From an uncultured Gemmatimonadales bacterium (GTDB taxonomy: Bacteria > Gemmatimonadota > Gemmatimonadetes > Gemmatimonadales > Gemmatimonadaceae): DNA of 64,000 nucleotides. A program made the translations under genes and the position numbers. Shown one piece after another: positions 6,099 to 63,434 of this stretch. Under the pieces are notes generated by a model. It searched no databases. It was not told where the DNA came from and saw nothing but the letters and a program-made list of their open reading frames with translations. The stretch is taken from assembly GCA_963850905.1 (NCBI GenBank), contig CAWKMU010000003.1:2560001-2624000 (forward strand), read 5' to 3'. The stretch's first letter is position 1; each line of letters starts with the position of its first letter.

Positions 6099-7238
6099 AT
6101 GACCCTCGCGACGGACTCTCAGGTCTACGCCCTCTTCGACCATCATTTCGGTGGCGAACCGACGGTGGTCGCGTCGGCCGGAGGCCGCGTCAATCTGATC
6201 GGCGAGCACATGGACTACAATGGGGGCGAGGCGTTGCCGATTGCGATCCAGCAACGCACGTATGTCGCGGCGCGCCCGTGCGCCGGCACACGCTCGCAGG
6301 TCGTCTCTGCAGGACACACGGACCGCGGCTCGTTCGACGCCGTATCGCCGGAGCGCTCCGGCGCCTGGTGGGACTACGTCGCCGGCGTGGCGCTCGAGCT
6401 GCGGCTGGCGGGCCGAGCCGCGGTAGCGGCTGATATCGCGATCTGGAGCGAGATCCCCACTGGTGCGGGCCTCTCTTCATCCGCGGCGCTCGAGGTCGCG
6501 TCGGGGTGGGCGCTCCTGGGGCTGGGCTCGGAAGAGATGTCGGACGAGGCGGTCGCGCTGACGGCGTGGCGGGCCGAGGTGGAGTTCGTGGGCATGCCGT
6601 GCGGCATCATGGATCAGTTTGCGATCGCGCTCGCGCGTGAAGGAGAGGCATTGCACCTCGAGTGCGACCGCGCTCGGTGGTCGCATGTCCCCATGACCGA
6701 TCCGGTGCTCATCTTCGACACCGGCGTCGCACGCGCCTTGCGCGGCTCGGCCTATGCGCAGCGCCGGGCCGAGTGCGCGGAGGCGTTCGCGCTCCTGAAG
6801 CGCCCGTATCCGGAGCTGCCACGACTCGCGGCCGCGACGACCCAGATGCTGGATGCCGTCACGCTCCCGGCTCCGATCGATCGGCGCGCGCGCCACGTCG
6901 TGACCGAGAACGAACGTGTCCGCGCGGTCGTTGCAGCGCTACGGGATGGGATGCCGATCAGCGGTGCACTGTTGTCCGCGTCGCATCGGTCGCTGCGCGA
7001 CGATTTCGAATGCTCGACGCCCGAGCTGGACTGGTTCGTCGAGCGCGCGATGCGCTGCCCTGGCGTGCGGGGTGCACGGCTCACGGGTGCGGGATGGGGC
7101 GGCTGCGGGATCGCGGTTGGTGATGAGGACGCGTTACGGGCTGCGGTGCCGCTCCTCTTGACGGAGTACAGCCGCCGGTTCGAGCACGGCGCGCGTGCGT
7201 GGGTGACGCACGCCGCTGGCGGACCGTCGGTGGTGTAG
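6099..7238 (+). CDS. galK: Galactokinase
   Basis: GRVNLIGEHMDYN, GHMP motif PTGAGLSSSAA, CGIMDQ, GARLTGAGWGG. Confidence 0.95.
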   Translation: MTLATDSQVYALFDHHFGGEPTVVASAGGRVNLIGEHMDYNGGEALPIAIQQRTYVAARPCAGTRSQVVSAGHTDRGSFDAVSPERSGAWWDYVAGVALELRLAGRAAVAADIAIWSEIPTGAGLSSSAALEVASGWALLGLGSEEMSDEAVALTAWRAEVEFVGMPCGIMDQFAIALAREGEALHLECDRARWSHVPMTDPVLIFDTGVARALRGSAYAQRRAECAEAFALLKRPYPELPRLAAATTQMLDAVTLPAPIDRRARHVVTENERVRAVVAALRDGMPISGALLSASHRSLRDDFECSTPELDWFVERAMRCPGVRGARLTGAGWGGCGIAVGDEDALRAAVPLLLTEYSRRFEHGARAWVTHAAGGPSVV

Positions 7239-7258
7239 CGGGCGGCCGCTTCGCGGCC

Positions 7259-7340
7259 GAGAAAGTAGACCTGCAGAGAGTAGAAAGTAGATTAAGCGGT
7301 CCTTGTCCACTTTCTACTTTCTGTGCTTCTGCTTTCTCGG
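7259..7340. repeat. AAAGTAG heptamer family with inverted partner (CTACTTT)
   Basis: aaagtag/agagtag/aaagtag then ccactttctactttct...gctttctcgg; same family at ~47369-47407 and ~63337-63413. Confidence 0.65.
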
Positions 7341-7366
7341 GCGCTTTGGCGCCCGGGCGGCTCGGC

Positions 7367-7395
7367 TTGATGGGGTCCGGTGGGCCGGGTATACT
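7367..7395 (+). promoter_or_regulatory. sigma70-type promoter of tRNA-Gly
   Basis: TTGATG-17 bp-TATACT, 20 bp upstream of the tRNA. Confidence 0.7.
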
Positions 7396-7415
7396 AGAGT
7401 CGCACGGTACGTTGT

Positions 7416-7488
7416 GCGGGAATAGCTCAGTTGGTAGAGCACAACCTTGCCAAGGTTGGGGTCGCGGGTTCGAGTCCCGTTTCCCGCT
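7416..7488 (+). tRNA. tRNA-Gly(GCC)
   Basis: Cloverleaf: GCGGGAA/TTCCCGC acceptor, AGCTCAGTTGGTAGAGC D arm, CAACC-TTGCCAA-GGTTG anticodon arm (GCC 7449-7451), GGTTCGAGTCC T arm; CCA not encoded. Confidence 0.98.
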
Positions 7489-7495
7489 TTGAGAT

Positions 7496-7527
7496 AAGCC
7501 GCTGACTCGTTGGGAGTTGGCGGCTTT
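7496..7527 (+). terminator. Intrinsic terminator after tRNA-Gly
   Basis: AAGCCGCTGACTC-gttgg-GAGTTGGCGGCTT hairpin (G-U pairs) then short T run. Confidence 0.7.
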
Positions 7528-7561
7528 CGTCTTCGTGCCAAGCACTTGCTACACGCGGGTC

Positions 7562-7581
7562 TGGCACTACGCTTGGCACTA
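7562..7581 (+). repeat. 20-bp direct repeat, putative integrase arm-type site (left)
   Basis: TGGCACTACGCTTGGCACTA (internal tandem TGGCACTA), identical to 15820-15839. Confidence 0.75.
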
Positions 7582-7627
7582 AGCACAAGCGGCGGTCCTC
7601 AGATTGTGGTGAACGGAGAGCGACCTC

Positions 7628-8291
7628 ATGGCGAAGTTTGACGTCAACGTTCGAGCTGCCGGAGGAAGGTGAATATCAGGCGGTGTGCACCGACGTCGTC
7701 GACCTGGGCGAGTTCCATAACGAGAAGTGGAACAAGATCGACCACCGCATCGCGTTTCTTTTCCAGCTCGACTGTCTCGACTCGCACGGCCACCGCTTCG
7801 AGATCGCGAAGCGGTGCAACCTGGCAATGGGCGAGAAGGCCGTGCTCCGCACCTTTCTCGAGCAGTGGCGTGCCAAGCGCTACACCGGCCAGGAACTCGA
7901 GCGGCGGCTTGAGTTGGACGCGTTCGTCGGCATGAACGCGATGATCGTGGTCGAGCACGCCGTCGTGAACGAGAAGACCTACGCCAACATCCTGAGTATC
8001 CGACCGCTGCCGAAGGGCGGCGTCCCGATCGCGCCACTCAACTACACCCGCCGCGACTACTGGAATACGACGGCTCGCGCGTCAAACGGATCGACCGGTA
8101 GCACATCACGGCCAGCGGCATTCGCCGGGAGCGGCACCACCACCAAGCCAGCACCGAAGCTGGTCCGATCGGCAGTCACGCCGCCGCGTGGCGCGGCGCT
8201 GCCACGCGAGAACAACTTCAGCGACTTCGACGTGCCAGTCGATGAGCAGGGTGGCCATCCGTCCGACACCGAGCAGCGGGGGGCCGCATAA
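7628..8291 (+). CDS. Phage ssDNA-binding/replication-initiation-like protein (NGO0469-like), +1 frameshift just after the start
   Basis: GEYQAVCTDVVDLG...EKAVLRTFLEQWR...KTYANILSIRPLPKG with low-complexity acidic tail; GGAG RBS and ATG 7628 are one base out of frame with the 7638 ORF (aagTttg). Confidence 0.65.
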
Positions 8292-8301
8292 CCGTCAACG
8301 G

Positions 8302-8335
8302 CACTGCCCCGGGAGCACGGGGGCCCGGGGCAGTG
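8302..8335. promoter_or_regulatory. Perfect 12-bp inverted repeat upstream of primase
   Basis: CACTGCCCCGGG-10 nt-CCCGGGGCAGTG. Confidence 0.55.
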
Positions 8336-8357
8336 GACGACGGCAGGCGGTACGACG

Positions 8358-10553
8358 ATGATGATGCTCTCGTTGCTCGACGCTGCGCTGACCTACGCGC
8401 GCCGGGGCTGGGCCGTCTTTCCCTGCCATGACACGCGGGCCCGGAAGTGCAGCTGCGGCCATCCAGACTGTGACTCACCCGGCAAGCACCCGCGCACGGC
8501 GCATGGCGGCAAGGATGCCACGACGGACGCGGATGTCATTCGCGGCTGGTGGACTAAGTGGCGCGATGCGAACATCGGCATCGCCACGGGGGCTGTGAGC
8601 CGTCTGGTGGTGGTGGATGTCGATGGCTCAGATGCGGAGTGTGCCATCGCGCCATACCTCGCGGCCGTGACGGGTCCGTTGTTCGTGGTGCGCACCGGTC
8701 GGGGGCGACACCTCTATTTCGCTGAGCCAGCGACGCCGCTCGGCAACCGCGCCAACGTCCTGCCGCATGTCGATGTCCGTGGAACTGGTGGGTATGTCAT
8801 TGGCGCCCCGAGAGTGCATGTCACGGGCCCAGTGTACGAGACTGACGACCTACTGGCGCCACTGCCGATCATCCCGGACCCCTTGTTCGCATTGCTCGCC
8901 CCATCATCGGCGTCACCAGCGCTGGCCAATGGCGAGGGTTCGCTCTGGACTCCCGCACTACACGGACCTGACGAAATCGACCGGCGGGTCCGGGGCTACA
9001 TGGCGACGCTGCCAACGGGGATGCATGACGGGGACGGCCGCGACAATGTCGCGTACCAGCTGGCGACCTTCGTGGGTCGCGATCTGGGGCAGCCGTTCGA
9101 TGTTGCGCTCGAGTTCCTCAAGGAATGGGACCGAGGGAACGCGGAGCCACTCGGGGATGCGCTGCTCGAGGTCAAGCTCACCTCGGCGCTCAATAGCAAA
9201 TCACCGACGGCGCGCGCGATCGGTTCAGGACTCGACCGACCGATGGTGCCACGGCCGATTGTCAGCGACACGCCGACGGCAGCGGACGATGATGGTCGTG
9301 GTGATGAGGATGTGGGACTCGTGCCCTGGCCAGCGGATTTGGCGGATGTCGCTTATCGCGGAATCGCCGGTGAGTTCGTGCGCGTGGTCGGGGACGCGAC
9401 CGAAGCCGACGCCAGTGCCGTCCTGGTGCAGTTCCTGGTCGCCGCTGGCAATCTGATGGGGCGACACCACTACGTCACGTTGGACGTGGCCGAGCACTAC
9501 TCCAACCTGAACGTCGTCCTGGTGGGCTCGACCTCGCTGGGTCGGAAGGGGACGGCCTGGTCGGTCGTGCGCGCACTGCTCAAGGCCGTCGAGCCCGAGT
9601 TCGATCGCCGCGTGGTCTCTGGGTTCCAGAGCGGGGAAGGGCTCATTCATCAGGTGCGTGACGCCGAATGGGGCGTCGACAAGAACGGGATGCCGACCTT
9701 GATCGATGAGGGCGTCGAGGACAAGCGGTGTCTGATCGTCGAGAGTGAGTTCGGCCGGATGCTGCGCACGATGGCGAAGGACGGTTCGACACTGTCGCCA
9801 GTCTTTCGGCTGGCGTTCGACACTGGCACGCTTAACATCCCCGCCAAGACGACGCGGAACAAAGCGACGGGTGCGCACCTCTCGATGGTCGGGCACGTCA
9901 CCAAAGCCGAACTCCGCCGTCGGCTGGAGGCGGACGAGATCGAGAACGGGTTCGCGAATCGGATGCTGTGGTGGGCCTCGCGCCGATCGAAAGTGCTGCC
10001 ACGGGGTGGGGCGATCGACGTCGATCGGTTCAAGACTGTTGTGGCTGACCTGGGGATCGCCCTGCGACTCGCAACCGCTCAAGAGGAGATGGCGTTCAGT
10101 GTCACCGGTGCGGCGTGCTTCGATGCCATGTATCGGGAGGATTTCGGGATCGAGGTGTCCGGACGACTCAATGATCTCACGGCGCGTGGGTCGGCCATCA
10201 TCGCGCGGCTGGCGCTGATCTATGCGTTGTTGGATCTGGCCCAATCAATCGGGCCTGAGCATGTCGAGGCTGCGCGGGCGGTGTGGGACCGGAGCGTGGC
10301 GACCGTGGCGTACATCCTGGGCGCCAGCCTCACAGACCCGCTGGTCGGTCGACTGATTGAGGTATTTCGCACCCGGGGAGAAGGCCGGGTTTTTCGCACA
10401 GCCGAACTCTATAACGCGTTGGGCCACAGCGTGACCCGGAACAAGCTGCACGACGCGCTCGAGCTGCTCGAGGACCGGGAAATGATTCGGCACGACACGG
10501 TCCACGGCCGTGGTCGGCCGGTCCACCAGTTCTGGTGGGTCGGCCGTGCTTAA
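8358..10553 (+). CDS. Bifunctional primase-polymerase fused to DUF3987-type helicase-like ATPase
   Basis: GWAVFPC, CSC..C..PGKHP, NIGIATG, VVDVD, TGRGRHLYF, DVRGTGGYV (Prim-Pol); G.TSLGRKG, SGEGL, ESEFG, NGFANR; winged-helix-like C-terminus. Confidence 0.88.
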   Translation: MMMLSLLDAALTYARRGWAVFPCHDTRARKCSCGHPDCDSPGKHPRTAHGGKDATTDADVIRGWWTKWRDANIGIATGAVSRLVVVDVDGSDAECAIAPYLAAVTGPLFVVRTGRGRHLYFAEPATPLGNRANVLPHVDVRGTGGYVIGAPRVHVTGPVYETDDLLAPLPIIPDPLFALLAPSSASPALANGEGSLWTPALHGPDEIDRRVRGYMATLPTGMHDGDGRDNVAYQLATFVGRDLGQPFDVALEFLKEWDRGNAEPLGDALLEVKLTSALNSKSPTARAIGSGLDRPMVPRPIVSDTPTAADDDGRGDEDVGLVPWPADLADVAYRGIAGEFVRVVGDATEADASAVLVQFLVAAGNLMGRHHYVTLDVAEHYSNLNVVLVGSTSLGRKGTAWSVVRALLKAVEPEFDRRVVSGFQSGEGLIHQVRDAEWGVDKNGMPTLIDEGVEDKRCLIVESEFGRMLRTMAKDGSTLSPVFRLAFDTGTLNIPAKTTRNKATGAHLSMVGHVTKAELRRRLEADEIENGFANRMLWWASRRSKVLPRGGAIDVDRFKTVVADLGIALRLATAQEEMAFSVTGAACFDAMYREDFGIEVSGRLNDLTARGSAIIARLALIYALLDLAQSIGPEHVEAARAVWDRSVATVAYILGASLTDPLVGRLIEVFRTRGEGRVFRTAELYNALGHSVTRNKLHDALELLEDREMIRHDTVHGRGRPVHQFWWVGRA

Positions 10554-10627
10554 TTCCTTAGTTCCCTTTTCTCCGGAGTGTTTCCCGGAGCAAAAACGGT
10601 CCAGAATTAAGGGAGTTAAGGAATTAA
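10550..10627. repeat. AT-rich 19-bp inverted repeat, candidate replication origin
   Basis: TTAATTCCTTAGTTCCCTT (10550-10568) vs AAGGGAGTTAAGGAATTAA (10609-10627), 17/19 complementary; directly after the primase stop. Confidence 0.6.
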
Positions 10628-10654
10628 GTCACTCGGTAGTGCGGAATACCACGG

Positions 10655-11074
10655 ATGACTGACCTGCTCACGTGGGCTCAAGGCCGGACGTGGCCAGTCC
10701 CTTACGCGGACCCGCCGTGGCCCTACCGCTTCTCGCGATCGAAGCGTCGGCGCGTCGAACGGCACTTCCACACGATGAGTGTTGACGAGATTGCCGCCGA
10801 GCCAGTGGCCGACATTGCCGAGCGGAACGCAGTGCTCTTCCTCTGGGGGACGGCCCCAAAGCGACGTGAGGCGCAGGCCGTCATGGCTGCGTGGGGGTTT
10901 GAGTACGTGACCGACTGGGTGTGGGACAAGCGGCGCACTCCGCGCGACCTTGGCGCTGGCTACTGGGGCCGTGTCAATCACGAGTACGTCCTGATTGGCA
11001 GGCGCGGCAAGAGGGGCGTCACGCTGGTGTTACCCTTCTTCGGACCATTCGCTCGGACCGTGCCGAAGCGTTGA
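10655..11074 (+). pseudogene. MT-A70 family N6-adenine methyltransferase, C-terminally truncated
   Basis: YADPPW, TMSVDEI, LFLW, AWGFEY, GYW.R..HEYVLIG; the expected HS.KP and ELFAR motifs are absent. Confidence 0.75.
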
Positions 11075-11397
11075 CCCAGCTTAGGGGGCCAGCCTGCAAA
11101 CCTTTTCGGCGGCTGGGCGGTCTCAACACGAGTATCCGGCTGCGCCATCTGGCTGTCGCGGCCTGGCGTACGGGCGACACCGCTGGCTTCAAGGGGGCTG
11201 TGTCCTTCGCACTCCAAGGGTCATGGGCAGATAACGCCAGCTCTCATCCATGAAACTCGTCCGCTATGGTGCGTCCAACATGATCGTCGACACGCCCCAT
11301 TCCGGTTATTCGTACCGAACTGATTGGGCATCTGACCGTGACCGAGGTCTTCTACGAGCCACGCGTGAGGCTCAGAACACATTTCCACGAGCTCCGC

Positions 11398-12864
11398 ATG
11401 AAACGGGTTCTGCTGCGTTTGATCGTATTTGGGGGTTTAGTCGCCACTCGACCTGCATGGGCCGATCAACTCGATTTTCGGCTCCAGCCGCCGAAGCGTG
11501 CGTTGACGCAGGCGCCGGCGGAGTTATCGGGGCTTTGGCTTTGGCGAACTGAGGGCTACGGATACGTCATACAGGTGGTCGGTGACTTGCTCAAGGCGTT
11601 CGAGGTGACTGATCTGAGCTGTATCCCGAGTTTCCAGGCGCGTCAGGTCGAGCAGGACGGATCGCGCGTCGTTTTCCAGCGAGTGGACGACTCGTCGAGG
11701 CTCGTATTCGTCGGTGCCACGGGAGCGGCCGATCAAGGCCGCCTGACCTATACTAACGCCGAATCGGACATGATTTTGCATCGCGTGGACTCATTCCCCG
11801 CGGTCTGTGACCGGACCACGGCCGATAACTCTATCACCAACTTCGACGTGTTCTGGGAAACGTATCGAGAGCAGTATCCGTTTTTTCATCTCCACCACGT
11901 GGACTGGCAAGCCACGCGTGATCACTTTCGCCCTCGCGTCATCCATGCGTCGCCCCCTGAGCTCTTCGGTGTGCTCCGCGCGATGATCGAGCCGCTTCAC
12001 GATCACCACACCTACATCTACTCGACCACGGACACATTGCTCGACTATGGCGGTGAGCGCCCCGATCCCGATCCGATCGGTGACGCCGGTCGTGCGCGGG
12101 CGCTCGAGATCATACAGAATCGTTTCCTCGTCGTTCCTCTCCGTTCGTTGGCCAACGGCAAGGTGTCGTTCGGCATGCTGCGGGACTCCATCGGATATCT
12201 GCGGCTGATGGGGTTCGGGGCGTACTATCCGGACAGAAGCTACGAGCGGCAGGGAGAGGATAGGTTCGCGGCCGATCTGCGTGCGCTGGACGCCGCGCTC
12301 GACACGATCTTCGCGTCCTCCGCTGGATGGCGAGGGCTCGTCATCGACATGCGGCTCAGTCACGGTGGTGCCAGTGCACTCGGCTTGGCGATCGCCAGCC
12401 GGCTGGCGACGGCGCCTTACACGGCTTATGCCATAGTTGCGCGTCGCGATCCAAATGACCCGACGCTCATGACCGCTCCGCAGCTCGCCATGGTCGTGCC
12501 AAGCGCGCGGCCGGGATGGCATGGGCCGGTGGTCGAGCTCACAAGCCGCTACAGCGTAAGCGCCGTCGAGACATTCACGCAGGCGCTCATGGGCCGCCGT
12601 CCGGCGGTCGATCGAATCGGAGAGCACACGAATGGAGTGTTCTCTGGTGTCCCGAACCGTCACCTGCCGAACGGGTGGATCTTTGGCCTCCCCAACGAGC
12701 TCTATCTCACCGAGCGCGGTACAAGCTTCGACGTCTCCGGGATCCCACCGACGATCCCCGTTCCGACGCTCAGGACGGCGGATCTCGCCGCGGGCAGGGA
12801 TCCGGGACTCGATCGCGCGATCGCAGTGCTGTCGGCGGGACGGGTGGACTCGCCGAAGAAGTAG
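11398..12864 (+). CDS. Secreted S41 family peptidase (cargo)
   Basis: Signal peptide ending AWA; NFDVFW, IGYLRL, LVIDMR..GG, SAVETF (catalytic Ser), IGEHTNG, GIPP. Confidence 0.85.
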   Translation: MKRVLLRLIVFGGLVATRPAWADQLDFRLQPPKRALTQAPAELSGLWLWRTEGYGYVIQVVGDLLKAFEVTDLSCIPSFQARQVEQDGSRVVFQRVDDSSRLVFVGATGAADQGRLTYTNAESDMILHRVDSFPAVCDRTTADNSITNFDVFWETYREQYPFFHLHHVDWQATRDHFRPRVIHASPPELFGVLRAMIEPLHDHHTYIYSTTDTLLDYGGERPDPDPIGDAGRARALEIIQNRFLVVPLRSLANGKVSFGMLRDSIGYLRLMGFGAYYPDRSYERQGEDRFAADLRALDAALDTIFASSAGWRGLVIDMRLSHGGASALGLAIASRLATAPYTAYAIVARRDPNDPTLMTAPQLAMVVPSARPGWHGPVVELTSRYSVSAVETFTQALMGRRPAVDRIGEHTNGVFSGVPNRHLPNGWIFGLPNELYLTERGTSFDVSGIPPTIPVPTLRTADLAAGRDPGLDRAIAVLSAGRVDSPKK

Positions 12865-12919
12865 TCGGGTTACCTTGCCGCCGCCGCCCATTAAACGCAG
12901 TCCGGTCGTGCAACGGCCA

Positions 12920-13162
12920 ATGACAAGCAAGATCCCGGACCCGGAGCGTCCGGCCGTCGTCGTCCACGTCCAGGGCAGTCCGTCGTTTCTCCTCATGCGG
13001 AACGCCCAGGCGATTCAAGCACACCGCAGGGACATTGCGGCGTTCAATGCGAAGCCCGCGCGCGCTGTGGACGCCCGTCGGGAGCGCACGCGCAAGGCCG
13101 CCGAGCGCGAAGCGATCGCCGAGAAGCGTCAGCAGATGGGAACGATCGGCGTCGGGTCCTAA
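12920..13162 (+). CDS. Small basic hypothetical protein
   Basis: 80-aa ORF from ATG 12920 ending 19 bp before the TerS-like gene. Confidence 0.35.
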   Translation: MTSKIPDPERPAVVVHVQGSPSFLLMRNAQAIQAHRRDIAAFNAKPARAVDARRERTRKAAEREAIAEKRQQMGTIGVGS

Positions 13163-13181
13163 ATCGGGTAATAGTGAACCG

Positions 13182-13688
13182 GTGGCTCGATACTGTACCA
13201 TTTGTCGCCATCCTCGACGTCGCGCGATCGAGCGATCGCTGTGGTGCGCGACAGAGTACGAGATCGCCGCGCGATACCGCGTTAGCCGAGCAGCTGTCCA
13301 GCGCCATGCGGCCGAGCACGTCAAGGTCCAACGCGACGAGCAGATGCAGCACGCGGTCGCCGCCGCCTGGTCCGACTTTGAGACGGTGTGGCAACGTGCG
13401 GTGGCGCATGTGGTGAAGGTCGAGCAACACGGCGAGTATCGGGACGTCATCTCGGCCCTCGCACTCATGGGCTCGCTCTGGGAGAAACGCACCCGGGCGC
13501 TCGGCATGGTGTCGGCACCGTCGGTGCATGTCGACGCGTCGCAGCGGACGGCGAACGTGACGCAGCTCATCTCGAGCGGCGCTCGGTTCGGCACCATGAT
13601 CGAACAGCTCGAGCCATCGTTTCCCGGTATCACGGCTGCCATCGTGCGACAACTCACGGCACCATCGAATGACGTGCATACCGAGTGA
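13182..13688 (+). CDS. Zn-finger/HTH protein, putative terminase small subunit
   Basis: CTICRHP...IAARYRVSRAAVQRH...H followed by helical region; overlaps the start of the terminase ATPase. Confidence 0.6.
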   Translation: MARYCTICRHPRRRAIERSLWCATEYEIAARYRVSRAAVQRHAAEHVKVQRDEQMQHAVAAAWSDFETVWQRAVAHVVKVEQHGEYRDVISALALMGSLWEKRTRALGMVSAPSVHVDASQRTANVTQLISSGARFGTMIEQLEPSFPGITAAIVRQLTAPSNDVHTE

Positions 13689-14460
13689 CCTCGAGTGCCG
13701 CGCTGCGCTCTGGGCGCTGGATCCGGCGGCGTTCGCTCGAGCGTGTGGCTTTGAGCCGGATCCGTGGCAGCTCGAGGCGTTGCGCAGTGCACACCGCCAG
13801 CTCGCGTTCAACTGCTCGCGGCAGAGCGGAAAGACGACGACGACGGCGGTACTGGCTGCCCGGGAGGCCGTCTTGCATCCCGAATCGCTGACGCTGGTCT
13901 ACGCCCGAGCACAGCGGCAAGCCGTCGAACTCTTGCGGAAGGTGAAGGGCGCGCTGGCCGCATTAGGTGACGCCGCACCGCCGCTCATTCGCGACAACGA
14001 GCAGGACGTGGAACTAGAGACGCATGCCAGAGTGTTGGCGCTGCCATCGACGGAACACACGACGCGCGGCTTCAGTGCGCCACGGCTCGTCGTGTTCGAC
14101 GAAGCGGCGAGAGTAAGTGACGACCTGTATTACGCTGTAAGGCCTATGCTCGCGGTATCACAAGGCCGATTGGTTCTCTTGTCGAGCAGCTGGAACGCGT
14201 CCGGCTTTTTCTACGAGGTGATGACCGGCGGCGATCCCAACTGGCACCGCATTGCTGTGCCCGCGTCCAAGTGTCCGCGACTGTCGAAAGCGTGGCTGGC
14301 CGAAGAGCGTGACGCCATTGGCGAGCGCGCGTATCGCCGCGAATACCAGTTGGAGTTCGGCAGCACCGACGAAACCGTGTTCGACCGTGACGTCATCGAC
14401 CGGTTCTTTTGCTCGACGTATCCGCCGCTGCACCCGCCGCCGCTGCGTCGGATCGCATGA
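13669..14460 (+). CDS. Terminase large subunit, stand-alone ATPase domain
   Basis: PDPWQ Q-motif, CSRQSGKTT Walker A, VVFDEAA Walker B, LLSS motif III, GFFY, REYQLEF. Confidence 0.88.
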   Translation: MTCIPSDLECRAALWALDPAAFARACGFEPDPWQLEALRSAHRQLAFNCSRQSGKTTTTAVLAAREAVLHPESLTLVYARAQRQAVELLRKVKGALAALGDAAPPLIRDNEQDVELETHARVLALPSTEHTTRGFSAPRLVVFDEAARVSDDLYYAVRPMLAVSQGRLVLLSSSWNASGFFYEVMTGGDPNWHRIAVPASKCPRLSKAWLAEERDAIGERAYRREYQLEFGSTDETVFDRDVIDRFFCSTYPPLHPPPLRRIA

Positions 14461-15312
14461 GGCGCGCCGTCGTCGGTTTTGATCCCGGCAAGCTGCGCGA
14501 TCGCGCGGGACTCTCCGTCATGTGGATCGACGATCACGTGCTGCCGTACGCCGAGCAAGTCAACGGGTTGTTCGGCGGCAACGATCACGCCGTCAACGTG
14601 TTGCCCTTTCCCGGCGAATCCGCACAGTCCCACGCGACCCGCGTCCGGCAAGTCGAGCGCGAAGAACCCGGCGCCATCGCCACGGCGCTCGTAGAGAACC
14701 GGCGACAGCAGCCGATCCGTCGCACTGGCGATATCGTGCATATGCGAACTCTTGCCGCGCGGCATGTCGTATCCGGACATGGCGCGACGGATCGTGCGGG
14801 AGTTGGCGCTCCCCGCGTTGCAGGCGCCGAGCGGCGGCAGTATCGTCACGCTCACCACGCCGTTCTTGGTGTTCGATCAAGGCGGCGTCGGTGAAGCCCT
14901 CTCCGACATTTTCCGCGAGATGAGGATCACCCACCGCCGCGGGATCTGGAGCACCACCGGCGACAAGCCGCATTTCGAGAAAGGCACGTGGTACGTCTCG
15001 AAGTACGAACTGGTGACGACGACCCAGGTGGCCATGCAGCGAGACCCGCCGGACCTCCAATGCGTCGAGAGTATCCCGGACGTCCACGCTCTGCGCGCCG
15101 AGTTGAACAACTATCGCGTCGTCGAGAGTCCGTCGGGCCGCGACATCTTCGGCGCGCAAGAGGACAGTCGGGACGACGAGCGGCGGATCAACGACGACCT
15201 GCTGTCGTCCATTTTCGTCGCCTGGTGGTTCGGTAGTAAAAAGCTGGAACTCACCGTGCCGACGGGCGCGGACTACGCGTCGGTTGTGCGCCCAGTCGCC
15301 CGCCCCGATTGA
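14457..15312 (+). CDS. Terminase large subunit, stand-alone RNase H-like nuclease domain (+1 frameshift at ~14751)
   Basis: ATGA overlap with ATPase; VGFDPG..D in the first frame; LPRGMSYP, FDQGGVG and NDDLL..IFVAWW in the 14752 frame; removing one base at 14751 joins them. Confidence 0.75.
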
Positions 15313-15718
15313 TCCGGACTCATCCAACAGCGTGACGTACCTGAATGCGCACGGCTGCACCGCGTACTTCGACGCGAAGGGCCGGTTTAGCACCTATACC
15401 TGCGATAAGGACTCCGCTGCGACGCATCGGTTTTTGGCCGCCTTCGAGCGCGAGATAGAAACTCGTGAACGCATGGAAAAGGAGGGAGGCGTGCTTCACG
15501 CATTAAGTGAGGATCTGGAGGCATTGCAGGCCTTGGGCGGAGCGAATGCCACATCCGCTGACACTCGCGCAAATTATGACGAGACCCTCAGACTCCATGC
15601 AGCGGCGCAAGAGACCTACGACTCCCTAGATGCCGCACACGCGATCGCCGCAGAGGATGTTGAGCACGAAAATGCGGTGCGCAGGTACCATGAGGCCCAC
15701 CCGAGTTCACCCCAGTAA
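15284..15718 (+). CDS. Hypothetical acidic helical protein (start uncertain)
   Basis: Co-oriented ORF filling the gap between nuclease and right end; no motif recognised. Confidence 0.4.
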   Translation: MCAQSPAPIDPDSSNSVTYLNAHGCTAYFDAKGRFSTYTCDKDSAATHRFLAAFEREIETRERMEKEGGVLHALSEDLEALQALGGANATSADTRANYDETLRLHAAAQETYDSLDAAHAIAAEDVEHENAVRRYHEAHPSSPQ

Positions 15719-15819
15719 CAGCAAGGTGGTCGCTCAGGGCTTGCTTCAAGCTGCTGGACGGAACAGACTTTATTTCCTTAATTCCCGAGCGCTCTGACGG
15801 CTTTTTTGGCCTCGATCCT

Positions 15820-15839
15820 TGGCACTACGCTTGGCACTA
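15820..15839 (+). repeat. 20-bp direct repeat, putative arm-type site (right)
   Basis: Identical to 7562-7581. Confidence 0.75.
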
Positions 15840-15924
15840 TAGGTCGTGCATTCCGGTATCGCGCTGTGATGTGCGGTGGTGCGGCGTGAGAGTGCGGCAG
15901 GGACTGTACCTCTGGTGGTACAGT

Positions 15925-15967
15925 CTTGCCAAGGTTGGGGTCGCGGGTTCGAGTCCCGTTTCCCGCT
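15925..15967 (+). repeat. attR: duplicated 3' half of tRNA-Gly
   Basis: CTTGCCAAGGTTGGGGTCGCGGGTTCGAGTCCCGTTTCCCGCT identical to 7446-7488; starts at the anticodon loop; no 5' half. Confidence 0.95.
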
Positions 15968-15974
15968 CTGAGAT

Positions 15975-16009
15975 AAGCTCGTAGCCGTCACGCGGTTACG
16001 AGCTTTTTT
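15975..16009 (+). terminator. Intrinsic terminator after attR
   Basis: AAGCTCGTAGCCG-tcacg-CGGTTACGAGCTT then T run. Confidence 0.8.
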
Positions 16010-16262
16010 CGTCTCCTGCGGGGGATGGGCCTCCTCTTGAGTGCAGTGCGGGTGCAGTAGAGGTCAGCAAGTCCTCTCGCTTGTTTCGTTCCGCGCCAGT
16101 GGGCAGAAACCGACCACAGAGCTCGAGCGTGAGGCGCGGAGAGGCGTGACCCGGCCGGGTCTGCGGCACGGGAATCGGTGTGCCGATGCAGGCGCGGATC
16201 GCGGCTGCGTCCCGAGCAACTCAGTGTTATAGCGCGCGCATGCGTGCTGCGCGACTGGTGTC

Positions 16263-16328
16263 ATAGCGACTGCCTATTGTCCCGATCCAAACAAAGTATT
16301 TGGCGCGCGAACGGTGCCTGCGTACCCT
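16263..16328 (+). promoter_or_regulatory. LysR-type regulated promoter, copy A
   Basis: ATAG-N7-CTAT-N11-AAACAAAGTA-TTTGGC-N18-TACCCT; same spacing as copies at 19687 and 57460. Confidence 0.7.
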
Positions 16329-16365
16329 TGCTTACCGACAGCCCGCGTACCGCAGGAGGACCGTG

Positions 16366-17677
16366 ATGACGAGCGCCGTCAGCGACCTGATGACCCAATC
16401 GTCGACGTCGAAGAGTGGCCTTCGGATGGCGATGATCGCGGGGGCCGGACTGACATTGTCGATCGTCGCTCTGTTGGCCCGGATGGCTGGCATACTGGCC
16501 GCCGGCCCCACCACACTGATCGTGCTGATCGGCGCGGCAATCGGCATCAAGGTCGCCTTTTCGTACGCTGCGAACGCAGCGTCGGCGCCGAGCCGCGCGC
16601 GAGTGGCGAGTATCGTTTCGACGGTGGGGTTGGCGATCTCCGGAGTGACGATACTCGCCGCGCTCCCGCATCTCACCAAGTCGGCGGGAATCGGAACTTT
16701 CGGCATCGACCTCCTCGCACAGATGTGGACGCTGACGGTTCTCGCGGTAGCCGCTGGATCAGTGCGGACGCTGGGGTGGCGCACGTTTGTCGGCGCTGGC
16801 ACCGCGGGGTTTCTCGCCGTGTCCGCGCTCGCCGTTGCCCTCGGAAGTCCGGTCGTGACCGCCTTTGCCCCGTCAGGTATCGCGGCGGCAGGTCGATCAA
16901 GCCTATTCGCCGTCGCCGCGTGGGTGCCATTCACCGAGGAGCTGTGCAAGCAAATCCCGGCGGCCTTTGTCATTATCGTTGCGCTGCGCCGTAGGGCTGT
17001 ACGACCGTCAGCGCTCGATCTCATGCTGCTGAGCGCCTGGACTGGCGCCGGATTCGCGTTGTACGAGAACGCCATCTACGGCAGGGGGTTCTTTCAACTG
17101 TTCGCGGTGCCGCCGTTCACGCTGCTATTTCCCGCTGAGTACACGGGCAGGTCGCTTGCAGCGGCGGGCTATGGGATCCGAATGACGAATTCGGGCTTGG
17201 CCCAGCTGCATGGCGGTCATTCTCGTACTCTCCGCTCTCATCGGACTCGGCATTGGCCTCAGCCTGCTCTACAGGAAACGATTCCGTCGTCCAGGTCTCT
17301 TCCTGCTCGCCGCGGCGCTGACGTCACTTCTCGAACACGCCGTGGCCGGCACGTTTGCGGTGGCCGGTATGGACCCGCCGGCGTACGCTGAACTTTTGTT
17401 GACACTGACCCTCGGTGGATATCTCTCGTCGCTCCTGCTGATCGTGGGAATCGGGTACGCGCTTTATATCGAGCGGCGCGCGATCGGCGCGGTCGCCTCT
17501 CGCCCACAGGATTGGTTGCGGCTGCTCCGGCCTGAAGCGTGGTTTCAGCTCTCCCCGGCCGAGGCCCAGCGCCGCGCCGTGCTCCTCGCGCGGGCGCAAC
17601 TCGGGGAGGTTGCCTCTTCATCGATGCAGCTGAACTCGTCTCCATCCATGGCAGCGGGTCAGGGGAGTCTCCGATGA
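16366..17677 (+). CDS. PrsW-family intramembrane glutamic protease (+1 frameshift at ~17221)
   Basis: AGGAGG RBS; multi-TM; PFTEELCK, GAGFALYEN, GH|LVLSALIGLG across the shift, LLEHA. Confidence 0.75.
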
Positions 17678-18504
17678 TCGACTTCCTGTTTACGGTCCTG
17701 CATTGGTGCGCGAGCTGCGCCCCGGCAGGTAACGGCGTTTCATTGGCGGTGGGCGCCCTCGGTGGGGGGGCAGGCGCAGCCGGAGGGATGGATGGAATGA
17801 GTGGCCTGGCCGGCGGAGGCTCGGGAGACGAACCCTTGTGGCAGATCTCGGGGACACAGAACGCCGATGGGTCGACCACGACGACGACGACAGCACCCGA
17901 CGGCACCGTCACGAACACGGTGACGACGCAGACCACGTACAACGCCGACGGGAGCAGCACGACGACGGGATCCGACGGCAGTACGACGACGACGCTGCCG
18001 GACACTCCCGTAGAAGGCGACCCCACGGCGGGCACCGCCGAGGCGAGCGACCAACCCTTATGGCAGGTCTCGGGGACACAGAACGCCGATGGGTCGACCA
18101 CGACGACGACGACAGCACCCGACGGCACCGTCACGAACACGGGGACGACGCAGACGACGTACAACGCCGACGGGAGCAGCACGACGACGGGATCCGACGG
18201 CAGTACGACGACGACGCTGCCGGACACTCCCGTAGAAGGCGACCCCACGGCGGGCACCGCCGAGGCGAGCGACCAACCCTTATGGCAGGTCTCGGGGACA
18301 CAGAACGCCGATGGGTCGACCACGACGACGACGACAGCACCCGACGGCACCGTCACGAACACGGGGACGACGCAGACGACGTACAACGCCGACGGGAGCA
18401 GCACGACGACGGGATCTGACGGCAGTACGACGACGACGCTGCCGGAGACCACCGTGGAAGGCGACCCCACCGCGACCACCGGCGAGGCAATCGCCCACCG
18501 GTAA
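17674..18504 (+). CDS. Thr/Asp/Gly-rich protein with three 74-aa tandem repeats
   Basis: ATGA overlap with PrsW stop, GGGGAG RBS; hydrophobic/Gly-rich N-terminus then D.PLWQ.SGTQNADGSTTTT...VEGDPTA x3. Confidence 0.7.
   Translation: MIDFLFTVLHWCASCAPAGNGVSLAVGALGGGAGAAGGMDGMSGLAGGGSGDEPLWQISGTQNADGSTTTTTTAPDGTVTNTVTTQTTYNADGSSTTTGSDGSTTTTLPDTPVEGDPTAGTAEASDQPLWQVSGTQNADGSTTTTTTAPDGTVTNTGTTQTTYNADGSSTTTGSDGSTTTTLPDTPVEGDPTAGTAEASDQPLWQVSGTQNADGSTTTTTTAPDGTVTNTGTTQTTYNADGSSTTTGSDGSTTTTLPETTVEGDPTATTGEAIAHR
17827..18473 (+). repeat. 222-bp near-identical tandem repeat x~3 (coding)
   Basis: Unit starts at 17827, 18049, 18271. Confidence 0.95.
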
Positions 18505-18548
18505 CCAGTCGAAGCGGCGTAAGACCGCCGTGCTGAGGCTTCGCTCTC

Positions 18549-18597
18549 GATAAGCCGCTGACTCTTTGTGAGTTAGCGGCTTTTGCGTTGATGCCAA
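18549..18597 (+). repeat. Diverged copy of the post-tRNA terminator/left-end sequence
   Basis: 41/49 ungapped identity to 7493-7541; hairpin AAGCCGCTGACTC/GAGTTAGCGGCTT retained. Confidence 0.8.
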
Positions 18598-18688
18598 ACT
18601 GCCATACCCCGGTCGCGGGACCGACACGCCTTCAACCCTGCGCGCGCATGTAACTGTCTAAGCGTTCACACCTTGAACGGAGCGTTGG

Positions 18689-63273: not shown

Positions 63274-63434
63274 GGGAGAAACTCCTAGGGGCCGGGTGAC
63301 GGGCAGCGGGCGCCATCGCGCCCGAGAGTGTAGCGTAGCAGAAAGTAGAAAGTAGACAACTGCCGGGCGTTTGGCCGTTGTCGACCTTCGACTTTCTGCA
63401 GTCCTACTTTCTCGGGCGCAGAGCGCCCGCGCGT

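Follow-up and report, generated by a model that had tools for sequence, protein, structure and literature searches.

We analysed a window of 64,000 nucleotides from an uncultured Gemmatimonadales bacterium (GenBank assembly GCA_963850905.1, contig CAWKMU010000003.1, positions 2,560,001 to 2,624,000; coordinates below count from the first base of this window), which contains a small island inserted at a tRNA gene. The integration target is a tRNA-Gly(GCC) gene on the + strand (7416..7488, ARAGORN). A comparison of repeats revealed that its 3' half is duplicated downstream. The attachment (att) core attL (7446..7499, +) recurs as attR (15925..15978, +), with a perfect direct repeat of 43 bp (7446-7488 and 15925-15967) that becomes 54 bp if one mismatch is included, and the distance between both copies is 8,479 bp. 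The anticodon loop TTGCCAA begins one base into the 43-bp repeat and is the putative 7-bp crossover region (7447-7453). Every gene called between the att copies is located on the + strand. In the close relative G278, which does not have the island, the tRNA gene runs straight into the sequence found here after attR. The first-pass annotation of the window had described this att duplication of 43 bp bounding 8,479 bp of co-oriented genes, and had listed an SSB-like protein, a Prim-Pol/helicase, an MT-A70 methyltransferase, an S41 peptidase, a TerS-like protein, a TerL ATPase and a TerL nuclease; the repeat comparison and the family matches (for the TerS-like protein, homology and position), respectively, bore out both statements. 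The element is confirmed as a real att-bounded island at tRNA-Gly with replication and terminase genes.

The left part of the element encodes the replication proteins. The first gene (7638..8291, +) codes for an SSB-like protein of 217 amino acids (phrog_862, E 6.5e-4) with DUF669-like neighbours in the atlas; an ATG at 7628 with a motif resembling a ribosome-binding site is out of frame with this gene. It is followed by an intact gene for a protein of 731 amino acids (8358..10553, +), in which a Prim-Pol domain (PF09250, E 2e-36) is fused to a helicase-like domain with matches to helicase and primase PHROGs. The MT-A70 methyltransferase gene (10655..11074, +) is truncated: the match covers only positions 6-109 of 172, and the native sequence ends at 11002, where the gene is interrupted by a mobile cassette with an S41 peptidase gene.

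In the right part a gene for a TerS-like protein (small terminase subunit) and stand-alone genes for the ATPase and the nuclease of the large subunit (TerL) form one operon. The TerS-like protein (13182..13688, +) contains a CxxC..H knuckle/helix-turn-helix region and long helices. It gave no family match, and its structural model (pLDDT 79, pTM 0.49) had no match in PDB or BFVD at E<=0.001; the best structure match named 'terminase small subunit' reached E 0.05. A role as TerS is suggested by homology and by the position upstream of the ATPase gene in islands as well as in phages. The ATPase (13669..14460, +, 263 amino acids) belongs to Terminase_6N (phrog_7579, E 1e-51), has intact Walker A and B motifs and shares no more than about 54% identity with any other match. 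With the single ATPase sequence no relative was found among viral contigs; an alignment was needed for detection. The nuclease (14457..15312, +, phrog_27743) is distributed over two frames in this assembly, with a break near 14750. In a second copy of the element, a contig described below, it is one intact protein of 284 amino acids with three conserved acidic motifs. Because the second copy encodes this intact protein, the frame break most likely is an assembly error, and we rejected its interpretation as decay. A weak search for fused, longer forms of the nuclease gave none among 1,688 candidates.

In addition to the att cores, both ends of the element carry exact arm-type repeats, a new observation that was absent from the first sequence reading. 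The left repeat (7562..7581, +) consists of two TGGCACTA units 4 nt apart and lies 115 nt from the anticodon loop, and the right repeat (15820..15839, +) lies 106 nt from the crossover loop. These 20-bp arms are exactly identical (0 expected) and are the sole copies in the genome. The exact arm pattern occurs in 3 of 301 family genomes (this one, G334 and G405), which are all of the same genus and all have it at tRNA-Gly; an intact integrase was found at the tRNA-Gly site in none of the three. The left distance of 115 nt is the same in G405 and G334. In G334 the left arm is directly followed by a broken tyrosine integrase gene, whose product is 52% identical to the integrase of G169, and in G169 itself an intact integrase of this subfamily lies behind an almost identical arm. 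An island of 8.7 kb (L212:2386-11119) with arms at both ends, the right one differing by two changes, occupies the same tRNA-Gly in G405; it contains an AAA_21/RloB pair, RusA and insertion sequence copies, and no integrase was found in it. Other integrases of the family adjoin different short repeats, and the best family-level integrase matches had no TGGCACTA arms in the adjoining stretches that were fetched. Because of its position and its co-occurrence with this integrase subfamily we read the TGGCACTA motif as a putative arm-type binding site of one integrase subfamily.

Recombinase, portal and capsid genes had not been seen inside the element by the first-pass annotation, and profile searches of the interval and of the assembly (4.49 Mb, 82% complete) gave the same result. 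PF00589 had no match inside the element. Using a profile of the cognate integrase family, the best domain inside the element reached E 0.31 versus 2e-6 for a control remnant outside, so that an integrase remnant, which would have spoken against the annotation, was not detected within the element. The control is a C-terminal remnant of a related tyrosine integrase (16047..16217, -) from an older island at the same tRNA. It was rejected as the element's own integrase, since it lies outside attR and adjoins a different repeat, in a flank that is common to G278. Resolvase (PF00239), capsid (PF05065) and portal (PF04860) profiles had no match anywhere in the assembly, six purpose-built portal and capsid profiles gave nothing better than E 0.07 in the element, and no portal, capsid or tail remnant was found in it. 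No alpA, merR or stl homolog was present among the element's open reading frames (ORFs) that were scanned for regulators. Among the features that define phage-inducible chromosomal islands (PICIs), a primase-replicase module is represented by the matches to PF09250 and the helicase/primase PHROGs, and a capsid-morphogenesis gene was not found in the element. Among those of capsid-forming PICIs (cf-PICIs), a large terminase is present as two genes, and own capsid, portal, protease and head-tail joining genes were not found in the element. Left arm and first ATG are separated by 46 bp (7582..7627) without a remnant, the position where relatives carry integrase and regulators, which we propose as the deletion point.

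To place the element we collected relatives of its stand-alone ATPase, of which there were 937 among 8,000 candidates scored. We fetched 167 loci in which the ATPase match is long; in 137 of them the protein ends before the nuclease domain. A portal or head gene is visible in 46 of the 167 loci (25 with the split form, 21 full-length) and absent within at least 4 kb downstream in 35; the rest comprises 10 loci classed by hand as islands and 76 that were too short to class. Because most ATPases end before the nuclease domain and 25 of the 46 loci with portal or head genes use the split form, the split of the terminase is natural. In phage loci the same three-gene module takes the terminase position upstream of the portal gene. 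In a quick FastTree analysis of 91 of the 167 loci (the 76 short ones left out), calculated without a clade test, ATPases of islands and phages are intermixed.

We examined 37 other loci for att repeats. In seven of them (L008, L033, L036, L065, L085, L120 and L121; 8.8-16.3 kb) a tRNA repeat, in some cases short or imperfect, encloses the terminase genes. All seven complete relatives have an integrase, none has a portal gene and one, L085, has a capsid gene, together with a scaffold gene; genes of the relatives were greedy ORF picks combined with six-frame scans using purpose-built profiles, which a very divergent capsid could escape. Since portal genes are missing from all seven and a capsid gene occurs in only one, the lack of a portal is, as judged from these sequences, a family trait, and TerS plus TerL without a portal characterizes a real family and not prophage decay. 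The annotation had named relatives that all carry integrase together with capsid or portal genes as a finding that would speak for a simple deletion derivative; the integrase part of this expectation held for 7/7, and the part on virion genes did not (portal 0/7, capsid 1/7). L033, L085 and L120 have the same gene order as the element, with the integrase between the left end and the replication genes. Because all complete relatives carry an integrase, three of them at the position of the 46-bp gap, its absence here most likely reflects a deletion in this copy and not the design of the family. In G169 and G305, which belong to the host's order, tRNA, integrase, nuclease, ATPase and TerS lie in a row. 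With TerS-like, ATPase and nuclease genes in one operon, and with a tRNA att and arm repeats at both ends without a portal, the element belongs to this widespread family of tRNA islands; its own tyrosine integrase is absent. Two terminase modules run against a simple integrase rule. In G188, which has arms, TerS and a broken TerL, no integrase was found; since its repeat is inverted and not a direct att pair, we left it out of the complete islands. L100 is a 15.9-kb contig with a terminal repeat, primase, TerS and split TerL in which no integrase was found either.

Several further properties of the relatives were recorded. With scaffold and major capsid genes (L085:7932-9445) and no portal, the split-terminase island L085 of 8.8 kb stands between the capsid-less and the capsid-forming type. 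Large unassigned proteins flank the terminase in L008:11408-14425, L121:3676-11774 and L127:3527-6364 (1,005 amino acids and tape-measure-like by eye, 424 and 945 amino acids, respectively). L121 and L100 encode primase-helicase proteins of >1,100 amino acids, in L121 with an archaeal-type primase domain. Defence-like cargo of the relatives includes Schlafen/AlbA, NB-ARC/TPR and HsdR-like proteins. We found no description of split-terminase, portal-less islands in the literature, where supplementary satellite catalogues could list such elements.

We read the element as a satellite that once had its own integrase, lost integrase and regulators beside the left arm and may still be excised and packaged with the aid of a helper; we give this reading a probability of about one half. 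Since the att cores and the arms have survived, the element could be excised by a cognate integrase that a phage or another island provides. An arm scan of viral contigs gave at least 120 loci with 145 arm matches among them, and the candidate donor of such an integrase is L298 (record G757), a viral contig of 66.4 kb with direct terminal repeats. It encodes an intact integrase of 399 amino acids (46% identical to that of G169), TerS, an unsplit TerL, portal, scaffold and capsid. Its arm agrees with the arm of the element in 19 of 20 bases, and a core resembling the anticodon loop follows at a distance of 106 nt, as at attR. This match in arm and spacing between the element and a complete phage is a new observation: among the 145 arm matches listed it is the only one with a core at the 106-nt distance, and among the 120 listed viral loci only this one has an integrase of the TGGCACTA subfamily. 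The intact att cores and arms of the element match this integrase-bearing phage by sequence and spacing, and binding of its integrase is predicted. Integrases of the lambda family require the same 7-bp overlap only in the two partner sites, and attL and attR carry identical 7-bp overlaps. Neither the split-ATPase alignment nor phrog_2 or PF04466 picked up the phage; its TerL is of a different, unsplit type. The phage (L298/L397) is temperate, with an attP core that resembles the 3' arm of tRNA-Gly with a tRNA-Met loop, and a full tRNA-Met gene follows this core beside the integrase.

A separate contig of unit length is the other new observation. This ENA contig of 8,453 bp, which is known through its proteins in cluster look-ups, encodes the identical SSB-like protein of 217 amino acids and variants of the primase, the methyltransferase, TerS/ATPase, the nuclease and the last ORF. 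Because the partners of the element's genes run from end to end, it covers no less than 8,080 bp of the unit of 8,479 bp. Ten flanking host proteins were looked up and four were found in the collection; none of these four has a partner on such a contig. The contig hints at an excised, separately assembled copy of the element. As only its proteins are visible, it may also be an assembly bubble.

The proposed history starts with an ancestor that very probably integrated at the anticodon loop of tRNA-Gly by means of its own tyrosine integrase of the TGGCACTA-arm type, an insertion which would have pushed older relics downstream. Integrase and regulators were then likely deleted next to the left arm. 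On balance, an incoming or resident element with an integrase of the same subfamily would excise the 8,479-bp circle, with RecA acting on the 43-bp repeat as a fallback. Prim-Pol/helicase and SSB would replicate the circle. For this copy it is a tentative proposal that TerS picks the element DNA and that ATPase and nuclease act as a two-chain TerL on the portal of the helper, filling helper proheads. For re-integration the helper integrase would be needed again. Excision, replication and packaging are deduced here from gene content and sites. The annotation was right in that any spread of the element would need a helper. That the element is today a live satellite, which borrows phage integrase and empty heads and brings along its own two-chain packaging motor, appears doubtful.

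A number of findings weigh against the preferred reading. On the side of the helper, no intact cognate integrase and no PF04860 portal or PF05065 capsid match was found in the 82%-complete assembly, so that no helper is on hand, and the only Terminase_6N match in the assembly is the element's own ATPase. The candidate donor phage has a crossover loop of the tRNA-Met type, its second arm spacing differs (69 versus 115 nt), and its host may be another organism. The contig is 26 bp shorter than the unit and has its own frameshifts and a few substitutions, and its ends could not be read. No att junction was present in four public runs examined, which cover mainly the tRNA and the S41 cassette; public runs contained at most 0.21 of the words searched, and contigs of this kind do not prove absence. 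Concerning the element itself, the ATPase departs from 12 near-invariant columns of its family, including the STP.G.R stretch, and sits on a long branch of the tree, the methyltransferase is truncated, and a scan of the element's sequence ahead of the operon for promoter-like sites remained at chance level and gave none. Neither the primase nor the terminase occurs in any of 9 other genomes of the genus, and packaging by the own TerL of a portal-less element is a deduction for every member of the family.

Some of these points would equally be expected of a dead relic, stuck and decaying after the loss of integrase and regulators, for which the contig would be a strain bubble or a low-coverage duplicate; we consider this unlikely. 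Lost regulators, the truncated methyltransferase, the first ATG out of frame, the drifted ATPase and the missing helper in the assembly fit such a relic, as does the fact that this tRNA-Gly gathers relics (the integrase remnant at 16047-16217, an att-like relic near 18549) and that islands with such arms are broken in G334, G405 and G188. However, both arms are still identical over 20 bp, whereas the right arm of G405 has two changes, for each of primase, TerS-like protein, ATPase and nuclease at least one of the two copies is intact, and the extra contig has no counterpart for four of four host genes tested. The annotation had left the choice between reliance on a helper and decay open, and each side gained support: the former from the arm match with the phage and the unit-length contig, the latter from the loss of regulators and the truncation of the methyltransferase. 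As a mere relic, the element would be an ordinary decayed member of the split-terminase island family.

It is improbable that the element is a stable satellite without integrase, for which a temperate phage supplies integrase, excisionase and proheads and which entered this site by integration in trans. Such a satellite would account for the arm sequence and spacing shared with a complete phage, for the lack of an integrase remnant inside the element and for the unit-length contig, and G188 and L100 are other relatives without an integrase. This is opposed by the integrase in 7/7 complete tRNA-linked relatives; the integrase-less cases are not close kin, G188 is broken, and no second host carrying the element was found. 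Still less probable is an island in which the terminase genes serve for interference, with TerS or free ATPase and nuclease poisoning the motor of the helper as anti-phage cargo. The deviation of the ATPase at conserved positions, the defence-like cargo of relatives and the satellite manipulating a phage packaging motor that is reported in the available part of PMC11417361 fit this possibility, but Walker A and B and all three acidic nuclease motifs are kept, and phage loci have the three-gene module at the terminase position, upstream of the portal. A full prophage reduced by the loss of its integrase and of every virion gene is very improbable as the origin: although phages with portal and capsid carry split terminases of this family and their ATPases are intermixed with those of islands, a distance of 8.5 kb separates the arm-bearing att ends, which matches complete portal-less relatives in size (8.8-16.3 kb), and virion remnants are lacking.

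The mobile cassette that interrupts the methyltransferase comprises 1,926 bp (11003..12928, +) and contains the S41 peptidase gene (11250-12864, PF03572), with a frame break near 11305 in this assembly. It has sharp ends and recurs elsewhere with 97-100% identity in 4 of 9 further genomes of the genus, with copies at unrelated sites across species in G401, G403, G404 and G405 (L249-L252). The corresponding protein cluster has 215 members with names from three families, and the cassette is covered in soil runs. No transposase or integrase was recognised inside it. Given the unrelated sites and the 215-member cluster, we rejected the peptidase as a prohead protease or core gene. An ORF of 81 amino acids without a family match begins in the end of the cassette (12919..13162, +), and a cargo ORF of 144 amino acids (15284..15718, +) has an 83% identical paralog in the tRNA-Ile island of this genome; an atlas search with the latter gave no usable match.

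Older relics occupy the region downstream of attR (15979-18600), among them a TGCAG-type repeat near 16042-16060 and a PrsW-family gene split between two frames. Positions 17822-18487 are occupied by a gene containing three tandem repeats of 222 bp, and near 18549 there is a third relic of an att/terminator. The genome has further integrases linked to tRNAs (Ile, Leu, Ser), with their own repeats (G000:C3:68500-72800, C3:3514980, C3:3390429, C4:41904); the tRNA-Leu integrase contains a stop, and the tRNA-Ser island has a relaxase-like ORF (by eye). Since one Xer-like gene is present in two frames, indel errors in the assembly are suggested. In another genome of the genus, L388 (G401:C8) 6387-15200 is a decayed tRNA-Val island that contains this S41 cassette as well as an SSB homolog (50%); its ORF resembling a rolling-circle Rep (by eye) occurs also in the tRNA-Ile island of the present genome. 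A palindromic intergenic repeat of ~115 bp at 7240-7360 and 63307-63433 has many copies in the genome and in relatives of the genus.

Comparison with known systems, for which we refer to the available parts of the cited sources, agrees with the annotation in that the element fits neither PICIs nor cf-PICIs. Like a PICI (SatelliteFinder core set, PMC10085698) it is about 9 kb in size, integrated at a tRNA, has a primase-replicase followed by a putative TerS gene, has no virion or lysis genes and would depend on a helper; unlike a PICI it has no integrase, regulator or capsid-morphogenesis gene and carries its own TerL as two genes. TerL is listed in the same source as a cf-PICI-specific component, and with cf-PICIs the element shares TerL, and a putative TerS, beside a replication module. 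In contrast to these, it has no capsid, portal, protease, head-tail adaptor or connector, and its TerL is a split Terminase_6N. PICI-like tycheposons (10.1101/2020.12.28.424599) and VEIMEs, which are virion-encapsidated integrative mobile elements (PMC9618062), carry TerS or a major capsid protein, and TerL of the helper is presumed. They, too, target tRNAs, by means of a tyrosine integrase, accumulate in tandem arrays and leave behind fragments of integrases and partial tRNAs; the element differs from them by its own TerL and the missing integrase. The elements named EPIPs combine a serine integrase with TerS (PMC12822802), and the available parts of PMC4936722 and 10.1101/2025.02.15.638363 describe nothing closer to the element.

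Units mobilised in trans offer a second comparison. The CR2-sul2 unit is moved by the GIsul2 integrase (PMC9376610), and CALINs and MITEs are integrase-less units mobilised in trans (PMC11389934). They likewise kept their att sites, receive the recombinase from elsewhere and originated by gene loss, but have no replication or packaging genes; for our element, excision in trans is a prediction. Such trans-excision becomes testable, since a candidate donor integrase can be named and the att geometry is defined. This copy would record the transition of an autonomous integrating element into a hitchhiker, and satellite finders anchored on integrase would miss such copies.

Closest to the element are the split-terminase islands described here (L008, L033, L036, L065, L085, L120, L121, G169 and G305), which share TerS-ATPase-nuclease, an upstream replication gene, att and arm repeats and a size of 9-16 kb, and differ in carrying an integrase, which this copy does not have. 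The family raises the question whether a terminase works on a foreign portal and without a covalent link between ATPase and nuclease. A borrowed integrase together with an own TerL would, if true, be the reverse of the division of labour in PICIs, which have their own integrase and borrow TerL. According to the available parts of the sources, described satellites either borrow TerL (PICIs, VEIMEs and tycheposons) or build whole heads (cf-PICIs); an own two-chain TerL without a portal would, if true, represent a third packaging strategy.

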